NCBI RefSeq assembly: GCF_041146345.1
Contig: NW_027191409.1
Span: 496,001 to 560,000, forward strand
Source: Neodothiora populina
Lineage: Eukaryota
Direction: 5' to 3'
DNA: 64,000 bases
Both the position numbers and the translations under genes were made by a program. The notes beneath the pieces were generated by a model. It ran no database searches. It saw only the letters and a list, made by a program, of their open reading frames with translations, and was not told where the DNA came from. Shown here in pieces: positions 1 through 56,641 of the stretch; the stretch's first letter is position 1, and each line of letters starts with the position of its first letter.

Positions 1-202
1 AGGCGGTGTCGCCGTCACTAGAAATGCCGTCAGTGAAGGTGTGCGAATGTTGATGGACAGACGGAAAGAATGGAGAGACCTCATTGGTCCAGTGGTAGAT
101 TTCGGAACCACAACGATACCCAAAGAGACAGTATTCGACAAGGCTTCTATGGATCGCCTTGATAAAGTGGAGGCGGAGACCGGTGAAGTCGAGGGTGAAT
201 GA
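1..202 (+). CDS. Possible 3' end of an upstream gene (partial, hypothetical)
   Basis: Frame starting at base 2 is open for 66 codons (GGVAVTRNAVSEGVRMLMDRRKEWRDLIGPVVDFG...EVEGE) to TGA at 200-202; protein-like composition, no recognised motif. Confidence 0.35.
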   Translation, partial: GGVAVTRNAVSEGVRMLMDRRKEWRDLIGPVVDFGTTTIPKETVFDKASMDRLDKVEAETGEVEGE

Positions 203-980
203 CACGAATCATGAAATGGCCATTAGTAAAGTCTGTAGCACCTCGTGGAGAGAATATCACACGTCTTCCTCCCTCCATCTGAAGGATGCAGCTCCCTTTT
301 ATGACTGCCGAATATGCGAATTGGGGTTCAACCTGCCATGACGTACTATCGTACAATGCGCATCGACGAGATAGTGGACATGTAATCCAACCGCGAATGC
401 TAGTTGGTCAGAAAGCATCTCAAATTCGGACCTTCCTTCGAACTACTCGAAGGTCGAGTAAGAAGGAAACGCAACGCCGAACGACCAGCAAACGACACCC
501 AAACCAGGAACGAAGTCCTAAAGAATGAAACACGAGACCAGTCTAGTTCCAAGCTGAGATTCCAGTGAGCAACAAATAGAACTACGGCCAGTCCGTGCCA
601 TAACACACATCAAGTATGGAAATGCCATCAGCAGTAAGGTACTCGACATGAACATATGTGGTACACATCCAACTACTTTCTCTGTAAAAAAAAATGACAC
701 AAAGTCAATAAGGTGCCCTTCTAAAAACTCAATTTACAATTAGGTTGATACCACGTGCCCCATACTACCGGCAGCACGTTCAAGTCACTACATGACTGAT
801 GATTCCTGCTGTCAAACCGACCATTTTCGTCACTGATGGCTCAGTGGACAGTAGGTCAGGTAAGAATGAATTGTAGCTGCTGTCTTGATGGACTGTGAGT
901 CGAGTCAGATTGGACTGGGAGTGAATGACGGGAGACTCGGAATGTGATTGTGATGGAATCTACGTGTATGGTAAGGTAAG

Positions 981-1134
981 GTATGTCAAGCTCCATTCAG
1001 CAGTATGTCAAGTCCCAGGGAATATCATGTCAGGTTCCAATCAATAGCACGTCAAATGTCGACGGAGAGTAGATCAACTCATAGTAAATAGCATATCAGG
1101 TTCCACTGAATAGCATGTCAAGCTGCAGTGAATG
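981..1134. repeat. Degenerate 22-nt tandem repeat, 7 copies (consensus approx. GCATGTCAAGTTCCAGTGAATA)
   Basis: Units start at 981, 1003, 1025, 1047, 1069, 1091 and 1113 with exact 22-nt spacing. Confidence 0.85.
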
Positions 1135-1723
1135 AATTGCTTAAATGGACATAATTCGGACATAGCTCCATTGCACGAATACGCGGAGTGACGGCTACCT
1201 CCGTTGCGCCGGAGTAAAGCCAATCTCTGTAGTGGCTCGCTCCATAGCTCCGTCTTGCCATTACATATGCTGAGTGACGATTGGCTCCGCAACCCCGCCA
1301 GCTTCCAATTACATCGCTTCCAAGGTGTGACAGCAAGTAGTCTATCGCCAGACGCGGGAGGCGAACACGAACAATCCGATTAGTGGCAGCGAACGGCACT
1401 TGCCAGCATACCATACCTCTGTACAGTGGAGCTAGCTTGAGACAAAACCTCGGTTGCCCTGTTATGTCAAACCTTCCGTCATAATCGTACACGTTCAACC
1501 CATGTGCGATCAGCGACGGGGCTTATTTGAGCACGCAGGCTTGCGTGGGTAAATCGGTAGCGTGCAATCGGTGAACGAATTGGACTGCCTGGTTTGGGGC
1601 TCCAATGAGGCTCAAAATATACTTCTTGTGGACCGAAACGCCAAACTTCATCATGATGCATATCCCTCATTCTCATCGTAGTTTTGTACGATCAGCTTGT
1701 CTGTTCCGATGAGCTCAATTCCA

Positions 1724-1730
1724 ACGTCAT
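1724..1730 (-). promoter_or_regulatory. CRE/ATF-type site (ATGACGT) upstream of catalase
   Basis: ACGTCAT at 1724-1730, about 165 nt before the ATG, with a TATA-like ATATATA near 1811; Aspergillus catA is known to depend on the bZIP factor AtfA. Short motif, could be chance. Confidence 0.4.
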
Positions 1731-1894
1731 AATAGTGTAATCCCATCAACCTGTGTGAACCCTTGCCTTACCTAAGGCGATGTAGCCACAACAATGTGGA
1801 TATTCCACGCATATATACGCGGGCGAGGACGCTCCTCTTTACTCTGGAAACCCAATTCTTGCTTCTTCTTGTCTCACAGTATACATAATTTCAG

Positions 1895-4332
1895 ATGGCA
1901 CCTGGAGTAACAGACGTGATCAAGGAAAAGATTGTCGGCATGACTGAAAACCAGAAGGTTGCTGATCTCCAGCGCAACACTGTTGAGTAAGTCGACCCAT
2001 CACTAAGTGAACTCTTCACTTTTGCCATTGAGGCATAGCTGACAAGAAACCTCTAGCTATCATGATCCAAGCAACAGAATCACTACCGACTATGGTGTGA
2101 AGCAGACCAACACAGACGACTGGCTGAGAATTGCCACCGAGGATAAGACTGGCCCCAGTCTGCTCGAGGATCACGCCGGCCGTGAGAAGATTCACCGTTT
2201 CGACCATGAACGCATTCCAGAGCGTGTTGTCCACGCTCGCGGTGCCGCGGCCCACGGTACATTCAAGCTGTTCGAAAGTGCAGCAGATGTCACCTCTGCT
2301 GGTGTCCTTACCGACACCTCCCGGACCACGCCTGTTTTCCTTCGATTCTCTACTGTGCTAGGAAGCCGTGGCAGTGCGGACACGGTCAGAGATGTCCGTG
2401 GTTTCGCGGTCAAATTCTATACCGAAGAGGGTAATTGGGACATCGTCGGCAACAATATGCCAGTTTTCTTCATTCAGGATGCCATCAAGTTCCCAGATGT
2501 CATCCACGCTGGCAAACCCGAGCCTCATAACGAGGTTCCTCAAGCCCAAACCGCACATTCGAACTTCTGGGATTTTCAGTTTTTGCAGTGAGTGTTTCTG
2601 AGTCGTTATCATGTCGTTGGCCAATTTGTCCGATTGTTCTTCGATTTTACCGGATTTCTTTTTCTCTTTTCCATTCATTAAAAAGAAACACCACCAATCG
2701 CAAGTACAATTACTGACCGTTACTCGCAGTACCGAAGCTACGCACATGTTTGCTTGGACCCAGTCAGATCGTGCTATCCCTCGTTCTTACCGGATGATGC
2801 AAGGATTTGGTGTCAACACTTATACCCTCATCAACGATAAGGGCGAGCGCCACTTTGTCAAATTTCATTTCACCCCTCATCTTGGTGTCCACAGTCTTGT
2901 CTGGGACGAAGCTCTGAAGATCGCAGGGCAAGACCCTGATTTCCACCGCAAGGACCTGTGGGATGCCATTGAGAGCGGATCCTATCCCAAATGGGACTTC
3001 GGCATCCAGGTCATACCCGAATCAAAGGAGAATGACTTCGAGTTCGATATCCTCGACGCCACCAAACTTTGGCCTGAAGAGGAGGTGCCAATCAGGTACA
3101 TTGGCGAGCTTGAACTAAACCGCAACCCAGACGAATACTTTGCCGAGACCGAGCAGGTCGCCTATTGCACTGGACACATTGTACCAGGTATCGGATTCTC
3201 TGATGATCCGCTTCTCCAAGGACGCAACTTTTCTTATTCTGACACGCAACTCACACGTCTGGGTGGACCAAATTGGGAATCACTTCCGATCAACAGGCCA
3301 AGATGCCCAGTCATGAATCAAAACCGTGATGGCGCGTCAAGACATACTATCACCAAGGGAAGAGCAAACTATTGGCCCAATCGGTTCGAGTCCACTCCAC
3401 CAGCTAAGCCCCAGGAAGGGGGTTACGTTGACTACCCGCAGAAGGTGGTAGGTATCAAGACCCGCTTGCGCAGCAAGAAGTTCGGCGAGCACTACAAGCA
3501 AGCGCAGTTGTTCTATAACTCTATGAGTGAGCCAGAGAAGATGCACATGATGAATTCATTCTCATTTGAGTTGGATCACTGTGATGATCCGGTCGTCTAC
3601 AACCGCATGTGTGAGCGCTTGACTTATATTGATCTCAAGCTCGCCCAAGATGTTGCGGAGATGGTCGGCGCGCCGATTCCCCAGGAGGCGGCCATTCCTA
3701 ACGAGGGCAAGACTGCAAAGGGTCTCAGTCAAACTGAGTACCCTCCTAAGAATGGTCCCACCATCGAGACACGCCGTGTTGCCATCATCATTGCTGATGG
3801 CTACGATGCCGTGGCTTACAACGGCATCAAGGCTGCTCTGACTGCTGCAAAGGCACTCCCCTTCACCATTGCTCCTCGCCGTACTCCTATCTATGCTGCT
3901 GGCGAGAAGAAGGAGGCCGGTAAGGGTGTGACTCCTGACCATCACCTTGAGGGCATGCGAAGCACCATGTTCGACTCGGTTTACGTACCGGGAGGTGCTG
4001 ACAGCATTGCTACGCTACGCAAGAATGGACGTGCCCTTCACTGGGTCCGCGAGGCTTTCGGCCACTTGAAGGCCATTGGTGCCACCGGTGAAGCAGTGCA
4101 GTTTGTCAAGGATGCATGCCAATTGCCAGGTATAACTTTCAGTGAAGGAGGTGATGTCGTTGACTCATACGGCGTTGTCACTGCAGCGACCGTGCAGCCC
4201 CAGAGCTTTAAGGAGACTGTGCAAATGGTCAAGGGCGCAAAGGACTTTGTGGATGCATACTTCTACGCCATTTCGTTGCACAGGAACTTCGATCGTGAGC
4301 TCGAGGGCTTGTCTACTATGGTTGCATACTAG
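1895..4332 (+). CDS. catA: Large-subunit monofunctional heme catalase (CatA/Cat-1 type, no signal peptide); exons 1895-1986, 2057-2587, 2730-4332
   Basis: [26 protein letters not shown] and [10 protein letters not shown] (proximal Tyr) motifs; C-terminal DJ-1/GATase-like domain; two GT-AG introns restore the frame. Confidence 0.95.
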
Positions 4333-4420
4333 GCAAAGTTGCTACAACTCACCCTATACCCATTTAACTATGATTAGATTTCAGATAGTCCTTTTTCAAT
4401 AATTCCATTTTACTTCATTT

Positions 4421-5340
4421 TGACTTGCTATTCATGGATCCTTCATCCACATCTCAGCATGACTTGACCCACTGTTCATTCATGTTCATCCAACCTGACT
4501 AGCCATTCATTGTACCTTCATCTACATATCGATACAAATTAATTTACTATTCATCTCTGATTTTCACTCTAATCTGACCTGCCTTGCATTTGACCCTTGA
4601 TCAGAACTTACTGATCATTCTTCATCTTGATCGCAATCTGACCTGCCATTTATTGAGAAATTAGTCTATACTTCATTGGGATCTGACATACTCTTCAGTC
4701 ATAGCATCATCTCATCCTGACCTTCTATGCATTAAATCTTCATCCACACTTCAATGTGACTTGACTTAAAACACTTGTAGCCATCGATTTGAACTGCCAT
4801 ACTGTTAATCGAATCTTTATTCATAATCCAAAGTAATTTGACTTATAACACTTATGGTCTTGGGTAAAGCTGACCGGCTATTCACTAGACCTTCAATTAC
4901 GATTTCTCATAACTCGACTTACTGCTCATCTCAACATGACTTTCTATCTATTGAAACTTCATTCATAGCTTACTTGATAATTCATGATCTTCATATTACA
5001 CTGACTTGCCATTGTTTGGAATTCATTTATGATCCATTATAGCTTGATTTACTCTGCATCCATGTATCTCATTCCGACCTAACCTGCTGTTCAATGGACC
5101 TCCACTCACAGCTTACTGATTATCCTCCAAGGTCCAAGTCAAGTTGACCTGCTATTCATGAAGCCTTCATCTGTATTCCTTGGACTCGGCCTACTTTTCG
5201 TTCATGACTTCGATCCACTCTCACCTGCCATCTATGGAACCTGCATCCACAACTTTGTCTATTATGCATGATTGCACTTCAACTTGACCCCAAGTTCATT
5301 GAACTTCTAACTTTCATCATGACTTGACTCGCTGTTACCA
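4421..5340. repeat. Degenerate higher-order minisatellite: ~30-nt core TGACYTGCYATTCATGGAACCTTCATCCAC every 64-79 nt, about 13 copies
   Basis: Cores at 4421, 4496, 4575, 4639, 4718, 4795, 4871, 4937, 5002, 5080, 5145, 5221 and 5285; AT/pyrimidine-rich, no long ORF. Confidence 0.8.
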
Positions 5341-6127
5341 CAAGTTTCAACTTGGTCAGCAGGATAATCAAGTATGGTAACTTCATAATGTGTCCTTCAA
5401 TTCACACGGATTGCGCTCTCAATTTGACTTGAGATTTTTATCTCTTAGGACTGTCACTATCTACTGACCCTTTTGGTCCACAACGACCAAAGCTTTCGAG
5501 AATACCTTTCCACAACTATACCACATACAGACCAAGGAAAGAAGAATACCCACAGCACTCTCGTGTGCAGGACGATGAAACAAAAACCACCAAAAAAGCT
5601 ATGAACGAAACCCTAGTCTTCACCGCCACCATGTCGTGCAACTACACGAGGGCCATTCGGGGGTTCCCTTTGGTTCTCCCACCCCTCCCTTGACCTTGCA
5701 TATGACAGCTGTTATATGCACATATCCAACGGGTGGTAGCATAAGGGGTTTTCTGCTTGTCTCTTCTATTCTCTCTGATGAGGTTCACACGTCGGAGAGC
5801 GGGCGGTTCCACACGTGCATTGGTGGACAGCTTCTACGTCCGATCTGCGGTGCATGCAGCAAAAGCGGAAACAGCAGCAGCAGCGAACACAACGGACATA
5901 CGCTTGTGGGGATTGCAAGTGGCAATAGAGCATGCAAATGGCGAAGCCCATCACCCCACCTGCTGCGCAAGCAAAAGACGGTGGAAGGCAAAGGTTGCCG
6001 TTGTACGTGTTATGTGTTGTGTACCAAGCAAGCTACAAACAACGCGCAGCAGCAGAGGCGTGGCACACACACTCACACACCTACATACACATATAAACGC
6101 TTATGTGTTTGTATGTATGTGTGCGTG

Positions 6128-7498
6128 TCATACAAGGAAAGTCCAAAAGCTAGGGTACACAAACTCCTCGTCGAAGATGCGACGGACCTGCTCCAGCACA
6201 AACTTTTCCACTTTACCCACGTTTTTGAGCACTTGTTTGCCGCTCTCGCGTTGCCCAATCTCGCTCTCGACTCGGATTTCTTCAAGCAGGGCGCCGGGTC
6301 GTTGCTTGCGCTGATCAGTCGTGGTGGTGTCGCTGCTGCTGTTACCCTTCTCGGCGGCGGCGGCGGTAGCGGCGGCTTCGTCGTCATCCTGAGATTGAGA
6401 CTGTGAGTCACCTACCAGAGCTTCGGCATCTTCGGGACAGAGAAAACAGAAATGTGCTTTCTTCTTGATGTATGCTAAGATGCCGACGCCGTCAAAGGTA
6501 AGACCCGTGATGTTAAGCTGCAGGGGGATTCCAACGAAGCTGGGCATGGGATAGTCAAGGAGAATTTCGGCGGTGAGAGAGAGTTTGACGTTGCCTGCGT
6601 ACGACACATGAAAGACTATCTGCACGTCCTCGATGCTGCGTTCCGGCTGTGTCGTGGATCCAGGAACAAGTTTTGGGGAGTCGTCCTCCTGTCCATCCGA
6701 CGATGATCCGTCGAGAACTTCCTCGGGCCAGTCGTGTTGATGGCGCGACGTGGGACGCGATGAGGGTGTTGTCGCTGACGAATGAGTCAGTGATCCAAAG
6801 GACATCGAGCGATGATGATTATGCTGATGACGATTGTCGTTGTGCTGTGAATTGTGGTGGTTGTCATGTACCGACTGATCCGCATCCCCAAGAGCAAGTT
6901 TCCCTCTACTGGTATCCTGCAAGGTGTTGTGAAACTGTGCACCTGCTACAGCGGCTAGCGGAGTCGTGGTACCAGAGAGACCTGCAGATAGTGGCAAGTG
7001 GAAGTATCCAAGATTCGATGTACCTCCTAGTATACCAGGTGTAGTCGCCCGAGGTAAGAGTTGACCACCCAGTATATCCCGACGATTGAAAACTCCCGGT
7101 CCGTCGCGATGCTGCGTGTCTGAGGGAAGATTGGCACTTCGCTCATGTCTATCTGTGGACGTGTGAGATCCGCGAAAAGTGCCGGAACCACTTTGATCAC
7201 CCAACTTTCCATTCTGGTCGCCGATATCCTTGGGCGCCGGCTGCTCGCTATCTTCTAAGTCGCCGTCATCTTCATCGTCTTCTCCCTGATAGAAATCAGG
7301 CAAAGGTTCGCAAATATCCTTCAGTTCAACTTTGGGTGATATCTCGCCAAAGTCGAATGAATGCACTTTGACAGACCGTATCATACGGGGAAGTGTGACT
7401 TTTTGAAAGCGGTCATCTATGAAAGCTCTGATAGACTCTGCGAGCGCATCACCATCAGGTCCTTGAGTCAAGGATTCCCAATTGATATCTATTGACAT
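6128..7498 (-). CDS. MDM12: Mitochondrial distribution and morphology protein 12 (ERMES SMP-domain subunit)
   Basis: Starts MSIDINWESL; contains LLDYPMPSFVGIPLQLNITG and C-terminal KQVLKNVGKVEKFVLEQVRRIFDEEFVYPSFWTFLV; apparently intronless. Confidence 0.95.
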   Translation of the reverse strand: MSIDINWESLTQGPDGDALAESIRAFIDDRFQKVTLPRMIRSVKVHSFDFGEISPKVELKDICEPLPDFYQGEDDEDDGDLEDSEQPAPKDIGDQNGKLGDQSGSGTFRGSHTSTDRHERSANLPSDTQHRDGPGVFNRRDILGGQLLPRATTPGILGGTSNLGYFHLPLSAGLSGTTTPLAAVAGAQFHNTLQDTSRGKLALGDADQSVHDNHHNSQHNDNRHQHNHHRSMSFGSLTHSSATTPSSRPTSRHQHDWPEEVLDGSSSDGQEDDSPKLVPGSTTQPERSIEDVQIVFHVSYAGNVKLSLTAEILLDYPMPSFVGIPLQLNITGLTFDGVGILAYIKKKAHFCFLCPEDAEALVGDSQSQSQDDDEAAATAAAAEKGNSSSDTTTTDQRKQRPGALLEEIRVESEIGQRESGKQVLKNVGKVEKFVLEQVRRIFDEEFVYPSFWTFLV

Positions 7499-9296
7499 GG
7501 CGGTCGTGCTGTTGGCGATTGCGATAATGCGTGCACCTGGACCAGCGTTAAATGGAGATGGCAAGTCCAGGCGAAGCTGCTGCACAGATATACGTAACCG
7601 ACGCACTGACCATTTATTTTTATGTTCAGTCTGGATGATGACTACTTCTACAAGTCTCAATGCTCGATTTATAAAATCGTATGCCACTCATGTCCTGAAA
7701 TCGAGTATAAATGTATTTAGCTGTATCTTGAATTGCATCTCCAGAGTGTGCTGTATCAACTACCGTGCGATGATCATGGTCATATCTTCTCCGTCGCAAC
7801 AACCACAGATCACAAGTTTGCTCCTCTTCTTACTTAATCCTGGACCCTTGTCAAAGTCCGCCCAACGATCACAGGCTACGTTTGACTCCAGGACTACCTC
7901 ACTCTCCCCCCGGCCCGTACTCGCTCTACCTGACATTGACAGCTTGCTAAAAACGTATGCAAGCCCAAACATGCACACGCACCTCGGCCCGTACCGCGCC
8001 GTGTGCATTCATACCGGCCCAAAATGTTCCTATTCAAGATTCTGTGCGACCGCTGCTGTTCCACTGTGCTTACTGTGTGGACATACGATGGTCTTAGCCT
8101 GGGTGTTGACACCTGACGCATGTCCGTTGTAGTTTCGCGCCTTGGGTAAAAGAACCAGCTTCCAGCAGCACCGTAGGAGCCCAATTGCTTTTGGTAAAGA
8201 TACAACCCCCCAGAGGATTTATTGCGGCCTCGTTCATTACTGGCACCCGCGGTGGTGCCCCTAGATTACACCAATTCCATTAAGCTGCATTCCATGTATT
8301 CGCCTTCGTGTGCTTGTAGTGTATCACTGCCGCAAGGATATAACAAAGAAACATGCTTTTCGATGGTCAGCCACTGTCATATAGATTGCGCGAGGCTCAT
8401 ACCATAATAATCTTATCCTCCGCACTTCGGACATCGTTGATCGTGATAGATTTTTCTCTCTTTGACACCCTTACAGGCTCCACTCCTGGAAGAAACACAC
8501 GGCGATGTCTCCTCGGCTTGGTGGCCACACGCATAGACATGCACAATCTTGGTGCACATTCCGCCTACTCTGAAGCGTCTTCTTGTAGGTGGTCTGATAT
8601 GCTGCTAGAACAAGGAGACAGGAGTGAGAGATACTGTTGACTAAAATTAGTCGACGTTTGGCCCCAATGTTCCTTCAGCCCTTACAGATAACTCGGGTCC
8701 TATCAGTTCTCTATCAGTCTCCGGCAATGGATGTGCACTGTGCGTATAGAACAGCCTGTGTTCGAACTTCTCGAAGGCAGCGGCACCGAGTCACGTCTTA
8801 TACATTGAGTCCATCTCACTCAGATACCGATGATTTGGTCAGTCCCACAAGGCCATTTTTTTGGTAGCCGTCGAGCTTGCGAGGCTTTAGTCCATGCTAA
8901 GCAAGGGCATGTAGCACTACTGCGAGGACGCGAACTAAATGGCCAAAGAGATTGCGAGACCACCGATGAGTCCAAAGCGTGCTAAGTAGCACTTGCAGCC
9001 GGAACGTACATCCCGCAATCTATCGCTAGTTGTGTTTATCCTGACTTTAAATGGCAAGCAACCTGCCCTGCGTTTCATGCCTCTCTCTTACTCATGTTCC
9101 GACACTCTGTAACCGGAAAATTTGTTTTGTGATGTGTCTCACAATCTGTGACATTTTTTTCCAGGTGCCATTGACAGCTACTTTCGCTGTACGCACACGC
9201 TATCGTGAATGTGCTTTGCTTAGAGGGAGCCCCTTCTGCGCGCCTGTTGAACCACCCCCACCACGGACCTTTATTTATTTAGAGCCTACGATCAGA

Positions 9297-53996: not shown

Positions 53997-56641
53997 TCAA
54001 TCGCTGTCAATCTCAATCACCTCGATACTACCTTTGCTACTCTCTCGTTCAGCACCAGACACTCGATTAGCACTTGTTTCGTACCCAGGCTCATCCTCGG
54101 CTGTTGAGTTTTGGCTTTCCAGCTGCCGTCGCTTTCCACAATAATTGCACGAGTGTCAAGCAAACCCGCAGCCTGCAAACCGTCGCGGACCTGTTGCAAG
54201 AAATCGTCCATGATGAGTGATGGAGGACTGGCATCTGATCCGCAGATGGGACATTTCCAGTCGTCGACCTCGCTGACTTGCTCTGATGCGCCTCGAAATG
54301 ATCTTGTGTCTAGGAAAACGCCGAGGTCGAATGCCTCTCGATGCGTGCAATGAACCCCTCGGACTGCTATATCGAACATACGCGCATTCGAGAACGGCTC
54401 GAGCATTCCTATGGTCACGTTGGATTGAATGATGGCAATCTCATCACTTCGCGTCTCAGACTGACTCGACAGGTGCGAGACGATTGATGATCGAACCTCT
54501 TCAGCCGATAGGTGCTTTAGCGATGCCCGTATTGATTCTTCGGTAGCAAATTGAACAATTTCAATACCGACCATGAGATCAATCGGTTTGACACGATTGG
54601 ACATGAGATTCGTAAAGACTCTGAGCTGGTTTTCCTCTTTGAGACCTTTCGCGATGTTCACAGGTAGGGATCTGCCATGCTGAAGCTTCCGTCTGACTTC
54701 CAAGGGAGTAGCATTGAGCGTGAAATAAAGCCAAGAGGGCCACTCGACATCTTTGATTGACCAGTGTTTCGCGGAGTAGTCGCTGAGTTGGCAGCATTTC
54801 AGACGAAAAGCCACCGTTTTCTCGTCGAATGTTGCTGACAGCGGGATTTCGTCCCCTTTCTCACAAGATTGGGGAAGATTAACAAGATGATCACGGTCGA
54901 TCTGAAACTTGAAGTCTTGTATTGGTCGGGCTGCTAAATTGCTTGGCGGAAGTGCGAATCCGCATACATATCTGTAATACCTTGACTTGGTATCAACATC
55001 TACCGAAGCATGGGCAAATCTCAGGGAGGGTTCGCGGAGATGCACTTGGTGAAGTGCTGTCCGTAACGGATCTGGCTGGGCGTATTGTCGCACAGCCGCA
55101 TCTAGCGGAGGAATGAGCGAAGGCTGCGGATTGGACTTATTCGATATTTCATGCTGCAACTGGTGAACACTCCTGTATTGAGGATGTTGAGCACCAGCAC
55201 TTGCAAACGAAGCTCTATTGTTAAGAGGATTTACTGAAGTCGATTCCGGAAAGCCACGGGCTCGGGTCGTTGAGTCTGCTGGCATATGTGTATTCTGCAA
55301 AGGTCTCTGCTGCATATGAGAAATAGGTACAGCATTCGGGAAGTCGTTCGAAGCCGAATTAAATAAATCCCGGCGGAGGTTCCAATAAAAGGTATTGTGG
55401 TGAAGCACATCGGTTGGTGCACTTCCCATTCTTGACTCCGCCTGTTCCTCAATAAAGTGCTCATAAGCTCGCCTTAAGAACTGAGGGTATTGTGGGTGAT
55501 TCCTGAATACACGACCCCACAGAACTTCTACAGCATAGCTAAAGGCGACTCTTTGGAAGATGAAGCTCCTCCTCATCCCAAGTCTTGCAAGGTCATTTGC
55601 GAAGGGCAGAACTTGATCTCGCACAGTGACCATGCATGTCAATGGCCAGTCATGTTGAACTGTCAAGCATTCGGATATGTCATTTAAGAGCAGTGCGAAC
55701 ACAGACGTACCCATCGATTCCTGCACACTTTGAAGGTATGAGGGAAGAGCATCGACAAACCGACGCGTTTGTGGGCCAAGAAGAGTGTCCGTTCCGATAA
55801 TATCCTCTATGCCGGAGGTATTCGCAGCATTCAAGATTGTAACATCTGGAAAGAGACATCTGACCCGGGGTTCATGTCGTGCCCTCAGGATGAGAAACAG
55901 TGTGATGTAGAAGACATCATACGCGTGCGAAGCTATTGCCAGCTGCTGTAGTCTATAGGTATCTATGTGGGACATTTTTCGTTCACGCAGCGCAGCCTCG
56001 ACGAAGTGCAACAAATTCTTAGTTACTTGCGCATATACAGGGGGCAAGCAGACGTTTTCTGCGTTGTCGCATGTTCCCGGTTGAAGTGCTGTACGATCGG
56101 TCAAAGCAGCCACGGATCCGGTGGCACATCTGTCTGTAGGGATAGAGTGAAGGGAAGGAACAGCAGCTGGTTCTTCGCTAAAGGCAGGGGTTGGAGGGAA
56201 GTGAGCATGATTAATCGAGGGAAGACCCCGTGAGTGGAGTCCGCCAGCCATCGGGGCAGTTGCTGGTGCCACTGGGCCTGGTATGATTGGAGAAAGAATG
56301 TGTGAACCTGATGGACCACAATCAGGCTGGGCGACAATCGGTACAGGCGTCATCTGCGCAATTGGTATGGCGCTCTGAGATCTACTGGCATGCTGTGTGG
56401 GCTGAGACACCGCAGTTTCAGGACCAGTGGCATTGGCATTGCGAGATAATTGTCGACATTGTCGGTAATCGTCTGTTCGGACCGACGCATTTTGTAACCA
56501 GCTGGGTGTTGGGTGAGTCTTACCAAGCAGTAATTGAGCAGTCGCGTTGGATGTGGCTATATCATGGTACGACTTTTTACGTTTGAGGTGTTGCGGCATG
56601 GCGGGAAAATGGACAACAACATGGAGATCCCGTCCGCTCAT
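53997..56641 (-). CDS. SP-RING (zf-MIZ) domain protein, putative SUMO E3 ligase-like; probable frameshift near 54110
   Basis: EPFSNARMFDIAVRGVHCTHREAFDL...WKCPICG SP-RING; upstream WPSWLYFTLNATPLEVRRKLQHGRSLPVNI; continuous ORF ends 54017, alternative-frame tail ends 53997; start may be a downstream Met (MPQHLKRKK). Confidence 0.85.

Follow-up and report, generated by a model that had tools for sequence, protein, structure and literature searches.

How did a catalase gene of Neodothiora populina come to lie between two arrays of the same short motif in mirror orientation, and do these arrays have a role? A sequence-only reading had offered two answers, namely that the arrays are relic ends of a mobile or amplification cassette that carries catalase as cargo, or that they are paired binding-site arrays. 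The locus was analyzed within a 64,000-nt stretch of DNA, the whole of which is called the window here. Two decayed arrays of one ~22-nt motif, opposite in orientation, do flank the catalase gene, and the gene itself is a long-resident one rather than the cargo of a mobile element.

Catalase transcription unit and its neighbours

The catalase mRNA as assembled extended over 1872-4423 on the plus strand, as a spliced and polyadenylated transcript contig (X2 record 3, 2364 nt) that has two GT..AG splice joints and, past 4423, 24 A residues with no genomic template. The coding sequence was located at 1895-1986, 2057-2587 and 2730-4332 (plus strand), with introns at 1987-2056 and 2588-2729, and poly(A) addition at about 4423 left a 3' UTR of about 91 nt. 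The protein contained the Pfam domains Catalase, Catalase-rel, Catalase_C and DJ-1_PfpI, and was 100% identical over 533 aa with an NCBI Neodothiora populina protein of 741 aa. Upstream of it, the C-terminal end of another gene was found at 2-202 on the plus strand (ORF open at the 5' end of the window, stop at 200-202), and a low-depth transcript contig (X2 record 2) covered 400-672, beyond the stop of this gene. On the other side, an MDM12-like (SMP-domain) gene was convergent with catalase (5926-7687, minus strand; ORF 6128-7687; Pfam PF10296 MMM1, E 2.5e-07), and its transcript contig (X2 record 4), covering 5926-6347, reached down to at least 5926.

Both arrays were located outside the catalase mRNA, as defined by the transcript contig, and bracketed the transcription unit symmetrically. 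The upstream array started about 150 nt past the end (672) of the transcript contig of the upstream gene and ended about 730 nt before the start of the catalase contig (1872), and the downstream array started no more than 5 nt from the catalase poly(A) site (4423). The motif was absent from the proximal promoter region of catalase (1145-1871, plus strand; 0 PWM matches of at least 8 bits), in which CCAAT boxes, four on the plus strand and two on the minus strand, and the direct repeat D10 (copies at 1179-1203 and 1265-1289) were found. A separately assembled 42,209-nt X1 contig showed 0 differences over 400-6347; X1 is possibly the source sample of the window, so this check is non-independent, and the runs that contained the stretch were all from one sample.

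Structure and relatedness of the two arrays

The upstream array was composed of two parts, both on the minus strand. The gene-proximal part (969-1144) contained seven units at 969-1122, in a strict 22-nt register with 0 indels (TRF period 22), and a unit-like inner boundary at 1123-1144. The mean pairwise identity of the upstream units was 0.58, TGAC or TGAT stood at the identical offset in 7/7 of the 22-nt units, and the spacing of direct-repeat family D3 in this part was 22, 22, 44 and 22 nt. Five PWM matches of 18.8-26.2 bits were detected here, all on the minus strand. The gene-distal part (829-968) held longer, more decayed units that resembled the downstream ~37-nt units. PWM matches there scored 23.2 bits (837-860) and 8.0 bits (881-904) on the minus strand, and the inverted pairs I2, I4, I8 and I9 fell in this part. 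Where the sequence-only reading had placed a longer inverted copy (829-858), longer units extended out to about 829, with minus-strand matches at 837-860 and 861-834. The strings quoted in that reading were all found at their positions; one was misread, and the reverse complement of 1101-1122 is CTTGACATGCTATTCAGTGGAA, not ...CACTGGAA.

In the downstream array (4419-5346, plus strand) the core was counted 19 times; the units were ~37 nt long, with a higher-order period of ~75 nt, and belonged to the direct-repeat families D1 and D2. The periods of the two sides differed, 22 nt upstream versus ~37/75 nt downstream, and the sequence-only reading was right in its structural part, inverted arrays of one motif with unlike periods. 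All 19 downstream PWM matches of at least 8 bits were on the plus strand and 14 reached 17 bits, with an irregular core spacing of 22-79 nt and a mean pairwise unit identity of 0.63. Ten of the 40 columns of D1 were invariant in 8/8 copies, compared to ~4 expected under even decay, which is a rough estimate from the mean column identity. The array was G-poor (12% G, 36% T), its GC was the lowest in the window, and no ORF longer than 66 aa was found across it. A further unit (TCAATTTGACTTGAGATT) may lie apart at 5419-5436 on the plus strand as the last of the series; it belongs to family D8, is 83% like the reference copy and falls below the PWM threshold. Neither array carried the RIP signature (TpA/ApT above ~0.89 and (CpA+TpG)/(ApC+GpT) below ~1.03), the indices being 0.56 and 1.40 upstream, 0.57 and 1.65 downstream, and 0.63 and 1.26 for the whole window.

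The relatedness of the arrays, and the claim that inverted arrays of one motif flank catalase, were supported by several comparisons. The separately derived consensi CTTGACATGCTATTCA and CCTGACCTGCTATTCA were identical at 14/16 positions, and all 24 other offsets gave 8 matches or fewer. The best local alignment of the reverse complement of 800-1149 with 4400-5349 scored 35, versus 17 in direct orientation, and exceeded the composition-matched control, as only 1/300 dinucleotide shuffles reached a score of 35 (mean 23.1, sd 2.8). Pairs of 14-mers with at most 3 mismatches between the arrays numbered 234 in inverted versus 8 in direct orientation; 330 tile/strand combinations from the rest of the window served as natural controls and gave a mean of 15.5 (sd 11, max 64). 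When a motif model (HMM) of eight downstream units was scanned over the window, the two best matches beyond the downstream array were at 1129-1100 (E 0.0098) and 861-834 (E 0.026), on the minus strand in the upstream array, followed by one at 55661 (E 0.041) that was inside a long open frame and looked like chance. The reciprocal HMM of seven upstream units had its best non-self matches in the downstream array, all on the plus strand. Strand consistency of the PWM matches was complete (19/19 downstream on the plus strand, 7/7 upstream on the minus strand), and TGAC was counted 20 times on the plus versus 2 on the minus strand downstream, and 9 times on the minus versus 2 on the plus strand upstream. 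TGAC was the best-kept part of the unit, with 1.0-1.6 bits versus 0.2-0.8 bits at most other positions, a contrast inflated by the PWM having been trained on these arrays.

The likeness between the arrays spanned 30-43 nt per unit; the reverse complement of 1098-1139, inner boundary included, aligned with 4400-4442. Colinearity ended beyond 43 nt, the arms were unequal (~320 versus 930 nt), and the conservation profiles of the two arrays, taken from phase-defined units, correlated weakly (rho 0.23, p 0.4). In the self-similarity analysis of 255 window tiles, the two arrays were the top complex tiles, and the other high tiles overlapped simple short-period repeats. No comparable array was found in the other 58 kb of the window by HMMs, PWM or tile self-similarity, nor any further motif copies within the 64 kb, in agreement with the initial impression that such an array is present nowhere else in the window.

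Related loci and the mobile-element question

The array motif was searched in 32 metagenome loci encoding catalase relatives (202,117 nt), a set that is distant (63-81% amino-acid identity) and includes many short flanks, and 0 matches at E below 1 were obtained. As the motif was found at none of these related loci, the arrays look lineage-specific. An MDM12-like gene was present beside the catalase relative in 3/32 loci (L006, L012 and L014). In L006 it was adjacent and convergent to the catalase relative, as here, but without the array, and the stop-to-stop spacer was 885 nt versus 1795 nt here, a difference of about the array length. In L012 and L014 it was within 4-5 kb of the catalase relative, and in L014 the homologous C-terminus of the upstream gene was also detected upstream of the catalase relative. 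A foldback of ~36-nt units was found 3' of the catalase relative in L015, sequence-unrelated to the motif here.

If catalase were the middle of a foldback-type transposon or composite element, 829-5346 would have moved or been amplified as a unit, and the arrays would be its terminal inverted repeats. Inverted arms of tandem subrepeats with differing periods do resemble foldback, Galileo and Tetris elements (PMC4079207), and the L015 array shows that a genuine foldback of ~36-nt units can lie 3' of a catalase relative. Nevertheless, catalase has kept its ancestral neighbours (the MDM12-like gene in L006, L012 and L014, the upstream gene in L014), and the loci that share the MDM12-like neighbour lack the motif. 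The earlier remark that neither a transposase nor a clear target-site duplication is visible was upheld: transposase, RT or integrase domains were found in 0/53 long ORFs scanned, and 0/7 candidate end pairs (at least 10/12 complementary) had a flanking duplication of at least 4 nt. No second copy of 400-6400 was found at 80% likeness or above in the X1 contigs (28 million letters), where a single contig fitted the stretch and copies only ~60% alike would escape detection. The very unequal arms, non-colinear beyond 43 nt, also speak against terminal repeats. The proposal of catalase as cassette cargo is therefore not supported, and the foldback reading is largely refuted and has hardly any probability left. 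With a resident catalase whose neighbours are shared in 3/32 loci, the segment between the arms is unlike an inserted middle domain. One candidate end pair with a 3-nt flanking duplication was observed, located inside the arrays.

Origin and possible role of the arrays

We consider the most probable reading, at somewhat under even odds (about 0.45), to be two homologous minisatellite-like arrays of common descent, which expanded locally and are mostly inert. A source sequence of ~30-40 nt with the core CYTGACNTGCTATTCA would have come to flank the gene on both sides in opposite orientation, likely because a non-autonomous element of foldback or MITE type that carried the repeat inserted twice, or through a local inverted duplication. 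Each copy may then have grown in place by slippage or unequal exchange, the 22-nt core alone multiplying upstream, and the ~37-nt unit and the ~75-nt double unit downstream, and the units would since have decayed to ~60% mutual identity. In this reading nothing at the locus is mobile today, and whatever effect the arrays still have is probably passive; the downstream array, beginning at the catalase poly(A) site, about doubles the spacer between the convergent catalase and MDM12-like genes. The data show that the arrays are homologous, how they are oriented and how far they extend, that they lie outside the mRNAs, that the motif is absent from the related loci and that RIP is absent; how the arrays arose and that they lack a function is inferred. 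Several features favour this reading. The likeness of 30-43 nt per unit exceeds a typical binding site, and the consensi agree at 14/16 positions; the units are old and degenerate (0.58 and 0.63), with irregular downstream spacing; and the layered higher-order copies (D1-D3) are typical of unequal exchange. The motif looks lineage-specific (0 matches at E below 1 in 32 loci), the syntenic L006 lacks the array and has a spacer shorter by about its length, and the same fungal group contains the sequence-unrelated ~36-nt array of L015. A shared selective constraint was not demonstrable (rho 0.23, p 0.4), nor was any of the stress-factor consensi compared present in the arrays. On the other hand, symmetric flanking of one gene and nowhere else in 64 kb is hard to ascribe to chance, and is unlikely for random insertions unless the repeat family is or was common. 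The start of one array at the poly(A) site, the position of both outside the mRNAs, the complete strand consistency and the well-kept TGAC (with the inflated contrast of a PWM trained on the same units) also fit the inert arrays less well. The same applies to the absence of the RIP signature. It applies also to the seven upstream units, which show ~40% substitution and yet have kept an indel-free 22-nt phase (about two turns of the helix), a hint that their spacing is constrained. As neither element ends nor a target duplication were found, the transposon origin itself is unproven.

The main rival, less probable than inert arrays, is the second of the two earlier answers, in which both arrays would be homotypic site clusters for one DNA-binding protein, with the core TGAC(C/A)TGCTATTCA, forming paired borders of the catalase transcription unit. 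Bound factors might act as boundaries or roadblocks that keep transcription of the upstream tandem gene from running on into the catalase promoter, and that of catalase from running on into the convergent MDM12-like gene, or might join the promoter-upstream and terminator regions in a gene loop; the mirror orientation would matter if the factor were polar. The arrays bracket the unit from outside the assembled mRNAs, the downstream one within 5 nt of 4423, and are unique within 64 kb, which is consistent with such borders, as are the 19/19 and 7/7 strand consistency, the TGAC strand bias (20 versus 2 downstream, plus; 9 versus 2 upstream, minus), the indel-free 22-nt phase, and the 10/40 invariant D1 columns against roughly ~4 expected. 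Against it, the Yap1/AP-1, CRE, STRE, HSE and AbaA consensi gave 0 full sites in either array, and the AbaA-type CATTCY occurred only twice per array. The motif was also absent from the 32 distant loci (63-81% amino-acid identity), the conserved positions were not demonstrably common to both arrays (rho 0.23, p 0.4), and ~930 nt of sites seems far more than a boundary would need. The unit likeness extends far beyond binding-site length, which argues for copying rather than selection for sites. An improbable elaboration is that a captured repeat was amplified locally and that the resulting arrays serve as orientation-dependent platforms for a putative DNA-binding protein, a fungal and CTCF-independent analogue of paired loop anchors or of polar roadblocks, shielding the strongly inducible catalase and its close neighbours from each other's read-through; the L015 foldback could then be a hint that arrays of this kind are acquired repeatedly on the 3' side of catalase. 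Quite improbable, too, is a role at the level of nascent RNA, in which the arrays would serve as clustered signals for termination or decay, met in the same sense by sense read-through past the poly(A) site and by divergent antisense transcripts. The mirror layout means that outward transcription reads UGACCUGCUAUUCA on both sides, and the strand asymmetry of the downstream array (12% G, 36% T) and its start at the poly(A) site would suit such signals. Nonetheless, neither array gave evidence of being transcribed, nor was a known termination motif recognized, and the upstream array, at least 730 nt from the 5' end of the mRNA contig, seems far away for a divergent-transcript terminator.

Factor-binding arrays would provide a natural, easily deletable model for the insulation, in compact fungal genomes, of a highly inducible gene whose tandem and convergent neighbours are under 2 kb away, and would point to an unknown DNA-binding specificity. 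If the arrays are inert, the locus would neatly illustrate how a single repeat family can give rise to two minisatellites of different phase on either side of a gene, and would caution that inverted repeats around a gene do not by themselves make it a mobile cassette. Like minisatellites, the arrays are non-coding and run head to tail in units of 22-75 nt, with periodicity also at a higher order, in promoter-upstream and 3' intergenic positions; unlike typical polymorphic minisatellites, the same unit occurs on both gene sides in mirror orientation and is much more decayed. Tandem repeats close to genes reportedly modulate expression, as in a review (PMC3899988) and in work on yeast promoter repeats. 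Foldback-type transposons (Drosophila FB, Galileo, Tetris) have inverted arms of tandem subrepeats with modular periods and can seed satellite-like arrays (PMC4079207, PMC3573991, PMC3688188), with a target-site duplication of 8-10 bp for Tetris (PMC4079207). The arms here are likewise inverted, of tandem subrepeats whose periods differ; unlike in foldback transposons, no defined terminal domain, no 8-10 bp target-site duplication and no further copies (at 80% likeness or above) were seen, the "middle domain" is a resident catalase with conserved neighbours, and the arms are unequal with units ~60% alike.

Mirror-oriented elements that bracket a transcription unit, here a stress gene, are also found in paired boundaries, such as the S. 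pombe IR-L/IR-R inverted repeats, scs/scs' around Drosophila hsp70 and convergent CTCF sites. The resemblance is architectural only; unlike these pairs, the arrays here are without conservation at related loci, and these fungi are not known to have CTCF. Roadblock termination by DNA-bound factors is exemplified by Reb1 in yeast; the roadblocks known so far use a single site or a handful, of defined consensus. As with Reb1, the putative sites here lie just downstream of a poly(A) site and between closely spaced genes; unlike Reb1, they comprise ~19 degenerate units over 930 nt.

Two arrays of one motif around the catalase gene

The catalase coding sequence (1895-1986, 2057-2587 and 2730-4332, plus strand) lay between an upstream array at 829-1144 and a downstream array at 4419-5346. 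Read on the minus strand, 7 units of the upstream array followed one another at exactly 22 nt between 1122 and 969 with 0 indels, and TGAC or TGAT occurred at one fixed offset in 7/7 units; the gene-distal units at 968-829 were longer and more decayed. By a 24-nt PWM, 7 cores were detected upstream (7/7 on the minus strand) and 19 within 4419-5346 (19/19 on the plus strand, spacing 22-79 nt), and the repeat search revealed a higher-order period of ~75 nt in the downstream array. The PWM score was at least 17 bits in 20 of the 26 array matches and 15.0 bits for the best of 21 matches outside the arrays, a contrast which is partly circular because the arrays themselves were the training set.

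Reciprocal HMMs, local alignment and 14-mer pairs were adopted as non-circular tests of the likeness. The top two matches of the HMM from 8 downstream units beyond its own array were in the upstream array (minus strand; E 0.0098 and 0.026), and the best non-self matches of the HMM from 7 upstream units fell exclusively on the plus strand of the downstream array. The best local alignment between the arrays scored 35 in inverted and 17 in direct orientation, and 35 was attained by just 1 of 300 composition-matched (dinucleotide) shuffles. Near-matching 14-mer pairs numbered 234 inverted vs 8 direct (330 natural controls: mean 15.5, max 64), and the separately derived consensi CTTGACATGCTATTCA and CCTGACCTGCTATTCA were identical at 14/16 positions. 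The bracketing of catalase by inverted arrays of one motif, which the sequence-only reading had described, was thereby confirmed, including its likeness beyond shuffled sequence. The units were about 60% alike, and the similarity between the arrays covered 30-43 nt per unit, the inner boundary of both arrays included. As the sequence-only reading had also noted, no further complex degenerate array was found among 255 tiles of the window. HMM matches at a second site (55.6/56.7 kb) fell within a long open frame with no array and were attributed to chance.

A separately assembled contig of the DNA run X1 reproduced 400-6347 with 0 differences; X1 is possibly the source sample of the window. The TpA/ApT ratios (0.56 and 0.57) and (CpA+TpG)/(ApC+GpT) ratios (1.40 and 1.65) of the two arrays were on the non-RIP side. 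The downstream array had a GC content of about 0.38 with strand asymmetry (12% G, 36% T) and was crossed by no ORF > 66 aa. The Rfam scan of 1-8000 gave nothing above threshold, only sub-threshold chance matches, and the tRNA scan gave none. The arrays are thus not RIP products, not coding and not a known RNA.

Genes and transcripts of the locus

The product of the gene at 1895-4332 was a large-subunit catalase with the Pfam domains Catalase, Catalase-rel, Catalase_C and DJ-1/PfpI. Its exon 3 translation showed 100% identity over 533 aa to an NCBI Neodothiora populina entry, followed by a runner-up at 81% and Aureobasidium proteins at about 75-77%; judged by sequence, the DNA is fungal. The upstream gene, an ORF on the plus strand, ended with a stop at 202, and ORF and Pfam searches located a convergent gene at 6128-7687 on the minus strand, whose product has an SMP domain of the MMM1/Mdm12 type.

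The run X2, recorded as 'DNA?', yielded transcript-like contigs. One of 2364 nt covered 1872-1986, 2057-2587 and 2730-4423 with GT..AG at both introns, and carried 24 untemplated A past 4423. Given the splicing at both catalase introns and the untemplated A-run, X2 behaves as a transcript assembly. The ends of exon 1 and exon 2 were set by X2 contigs at 1986 and 2587. With the contig end at 4423, the 3' UTR is about 91 nt long, and this mRNA end was at most 5 nt from the first downstream unit (4419). The MDM12-like mRNA extended to at least 5926, and the 3' region of the upstream gene was carried to 672 by a low-depth contig. Based on these mapped limits, both arrays lie outside the assembled mRNAs; the lack of X2 contigs on 673-1871 and 4424-5925 is absence of cover and no evidence of silence.

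In the proximal promoter of catalase, a 25-nt direct repeat (1179-1203 / 1265-1289, 76% identity) containing GAGTGACG was observed, and CCAAT boxes were present in 1145-1871, 4 on the plus and 2 on the minus strand. These are more ordinary candidates for catalase regulation than the arrays. Directly past the MDM12-like stop codon, an imperfect CA/TG-rich palindrome (6063-6128) gave sub-threshold Rfam mir-3149 matches on both strands and is probably a mere hairpin-prone 3' UTR segment.

Origin and possible role of the arrays

The sequence-only reading had suggested relic ends of a mobile or amplification cassette with catalase as cargo, or paired binding-site arrays. This interpretation was supported in part: its inverted structure stood, and the cassette found no support. 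Catalase relatives with 63-81% identity were encoded at 32 metagenome loci, and an MDM12-like gene was found nearby in 3 of these, namely L006, L012 and L014; the remaining 29 had short flanks or different neighbours. The gene was adjacent and convergent in L006, as in the window, and 4-5 kb off on the other strand in L012 and L014; the C-terminus of the upstream gene was also present upstream of the catalase relative in L014. The synteny comparison that had been proposed recovered the convergent adjacency in L006 and no array there, its stop-to-stop spacer being 885 nt with microsatellites only vs 1795 nt in the window, a difference which in this single comparison about equals the array length. 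No transposase, reverse transcriptase or integrase domain was detected by Pfam in 53 long ORFs (the 66-aa open frame at 2-199 and 52 from a set of 70 stop-to-stop ORFs with at least 140 aa), and the systematic search for end-inverted repeats with flanking duplication gave 7 candidate end pairs, 0 with a duplication of at least 4 nt, in agreement with the original remark that neither transposase nor target-site duplication was visible. With a likeness threshold of 80%, only one X1 contig matched the stretch, which rules out recent copies only. Catalase is a resident gene, and a cassette with catalase as cargo is very improbable. Inversion splitting one ancestral array was rejected, as the orientation of catalase to both neighbours was the same in the window as in L006 and L014.

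The arrays resemble foldback-type transposons in architecture, namely the internally repetitive inverted repeats described for Tetris (PMC4079207), but differ from them in the defining features of ends, target duplication and insertion-like middle. Structurally they qualify as degenerate minisatellites, if unusually arranged. Among the papers listed for foldback elements and subterminal repeats in fungi there was no fungal example, and by title or abstract opening no listed paper on Neodothiora populina dealt with this locus.

The likeliest reading is that the two arrays are homologous, minisatellite-like and specific to the lineage, having a common descent and having expanded separately. Units about 60% alike together with layered higher-order copies, the usual trace of unequal exchange, support this reading, and the likeness over 30-43 nt including the inner boundary is more readily explained by copies of a single source than by a short binding site that evolved independently. 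The source may have reached both flanks in opposite orientation through a repeat-bearing non-autonomous element that inserted twice, or through local inverted duplication; thereafter, only the 22-nt core would have multiplied upstream, and the ~37/75-nt units downstream. It is possible, if doubtful, that the arrays act as binding sites or boundary elements at the borders of the catalase unit, as suggested by their symmetrical placement at the two borders of a single transcription unit, the poly(A) site at the start of the downstream array, the complete strand consistency, the well kept TGAC and the upstream 22-nt phase without indels. However, Yap1/AP-1, CRE, STRE and HSE consensi were absent from both arrays, conserved positions were not demonstrably common to both, and the motif was without conservation in distant relatives (unit HMM vs the 32 loci, 202,117 nt: 0 matches with E < 1). 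A termination signal at the RNA level is unlikely; paired boundary elements and roadblock terminators serve only as putative analogues in function.

Alignment of the intergenic regions of the window and L006 gave no block with E < 1 from which to define insertion borders. A short spacer block looked alike by eye (window 5694-5716, CTTGCATATGACAGCTG; L006 2788-2809, TTTGCATATTGACAGCTG), about 420 and 540 nt past the MDM12-like stop respectively, and BLAST returned a 9-nt exact core only (E 4.7).

Foldback of L015 and 3' flanks of catalase relatives

The metagenome locus L015, genomic DNA with introns, contained a true foldback of ~36-nt units (GGCACAGCAGGGTAAGTGCGCACGAAAAAAAAATTAA) at 2890-3466, about 250 nt past the stop of the catalase relative. 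Its arms (left 2890-3065, right 3066 to the contig end) were in opposite orientation, and as folded single-stranded DNA it gave z = -5.5. Homology of its unit to that of the window was suggested by a match to CCTGCTGT by eye and by window-PWM scores of 11-12 bits, but was rejected because the L015-unit HMM showed no preference for the arrays (best array match E 12, rank 15). The L015 foldback is unrelated in sequence to the window unit, and it shows that this fungal group does have structures of the array type.

Only two long-period arrays were observed in the 266 kb examined, each just 3' of a catalase gene, and among the 3' flanks of the catalase relatives only that of L015 had one. A repeat-rich 3' flank as a common trait of these relatives was dismissed, the self-similarity of L016, L011, L014 and L006 being microsatellites and low-complexity sequence. 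About 400-1500 nt past the catalase stop, L011, L014 and L016 shared a conserved stretch turning G/T-rich and low-complexity on the plus strand, which looks like a low-complexity minus-strand gene rather than an array and explains the high self-similarity scores there.
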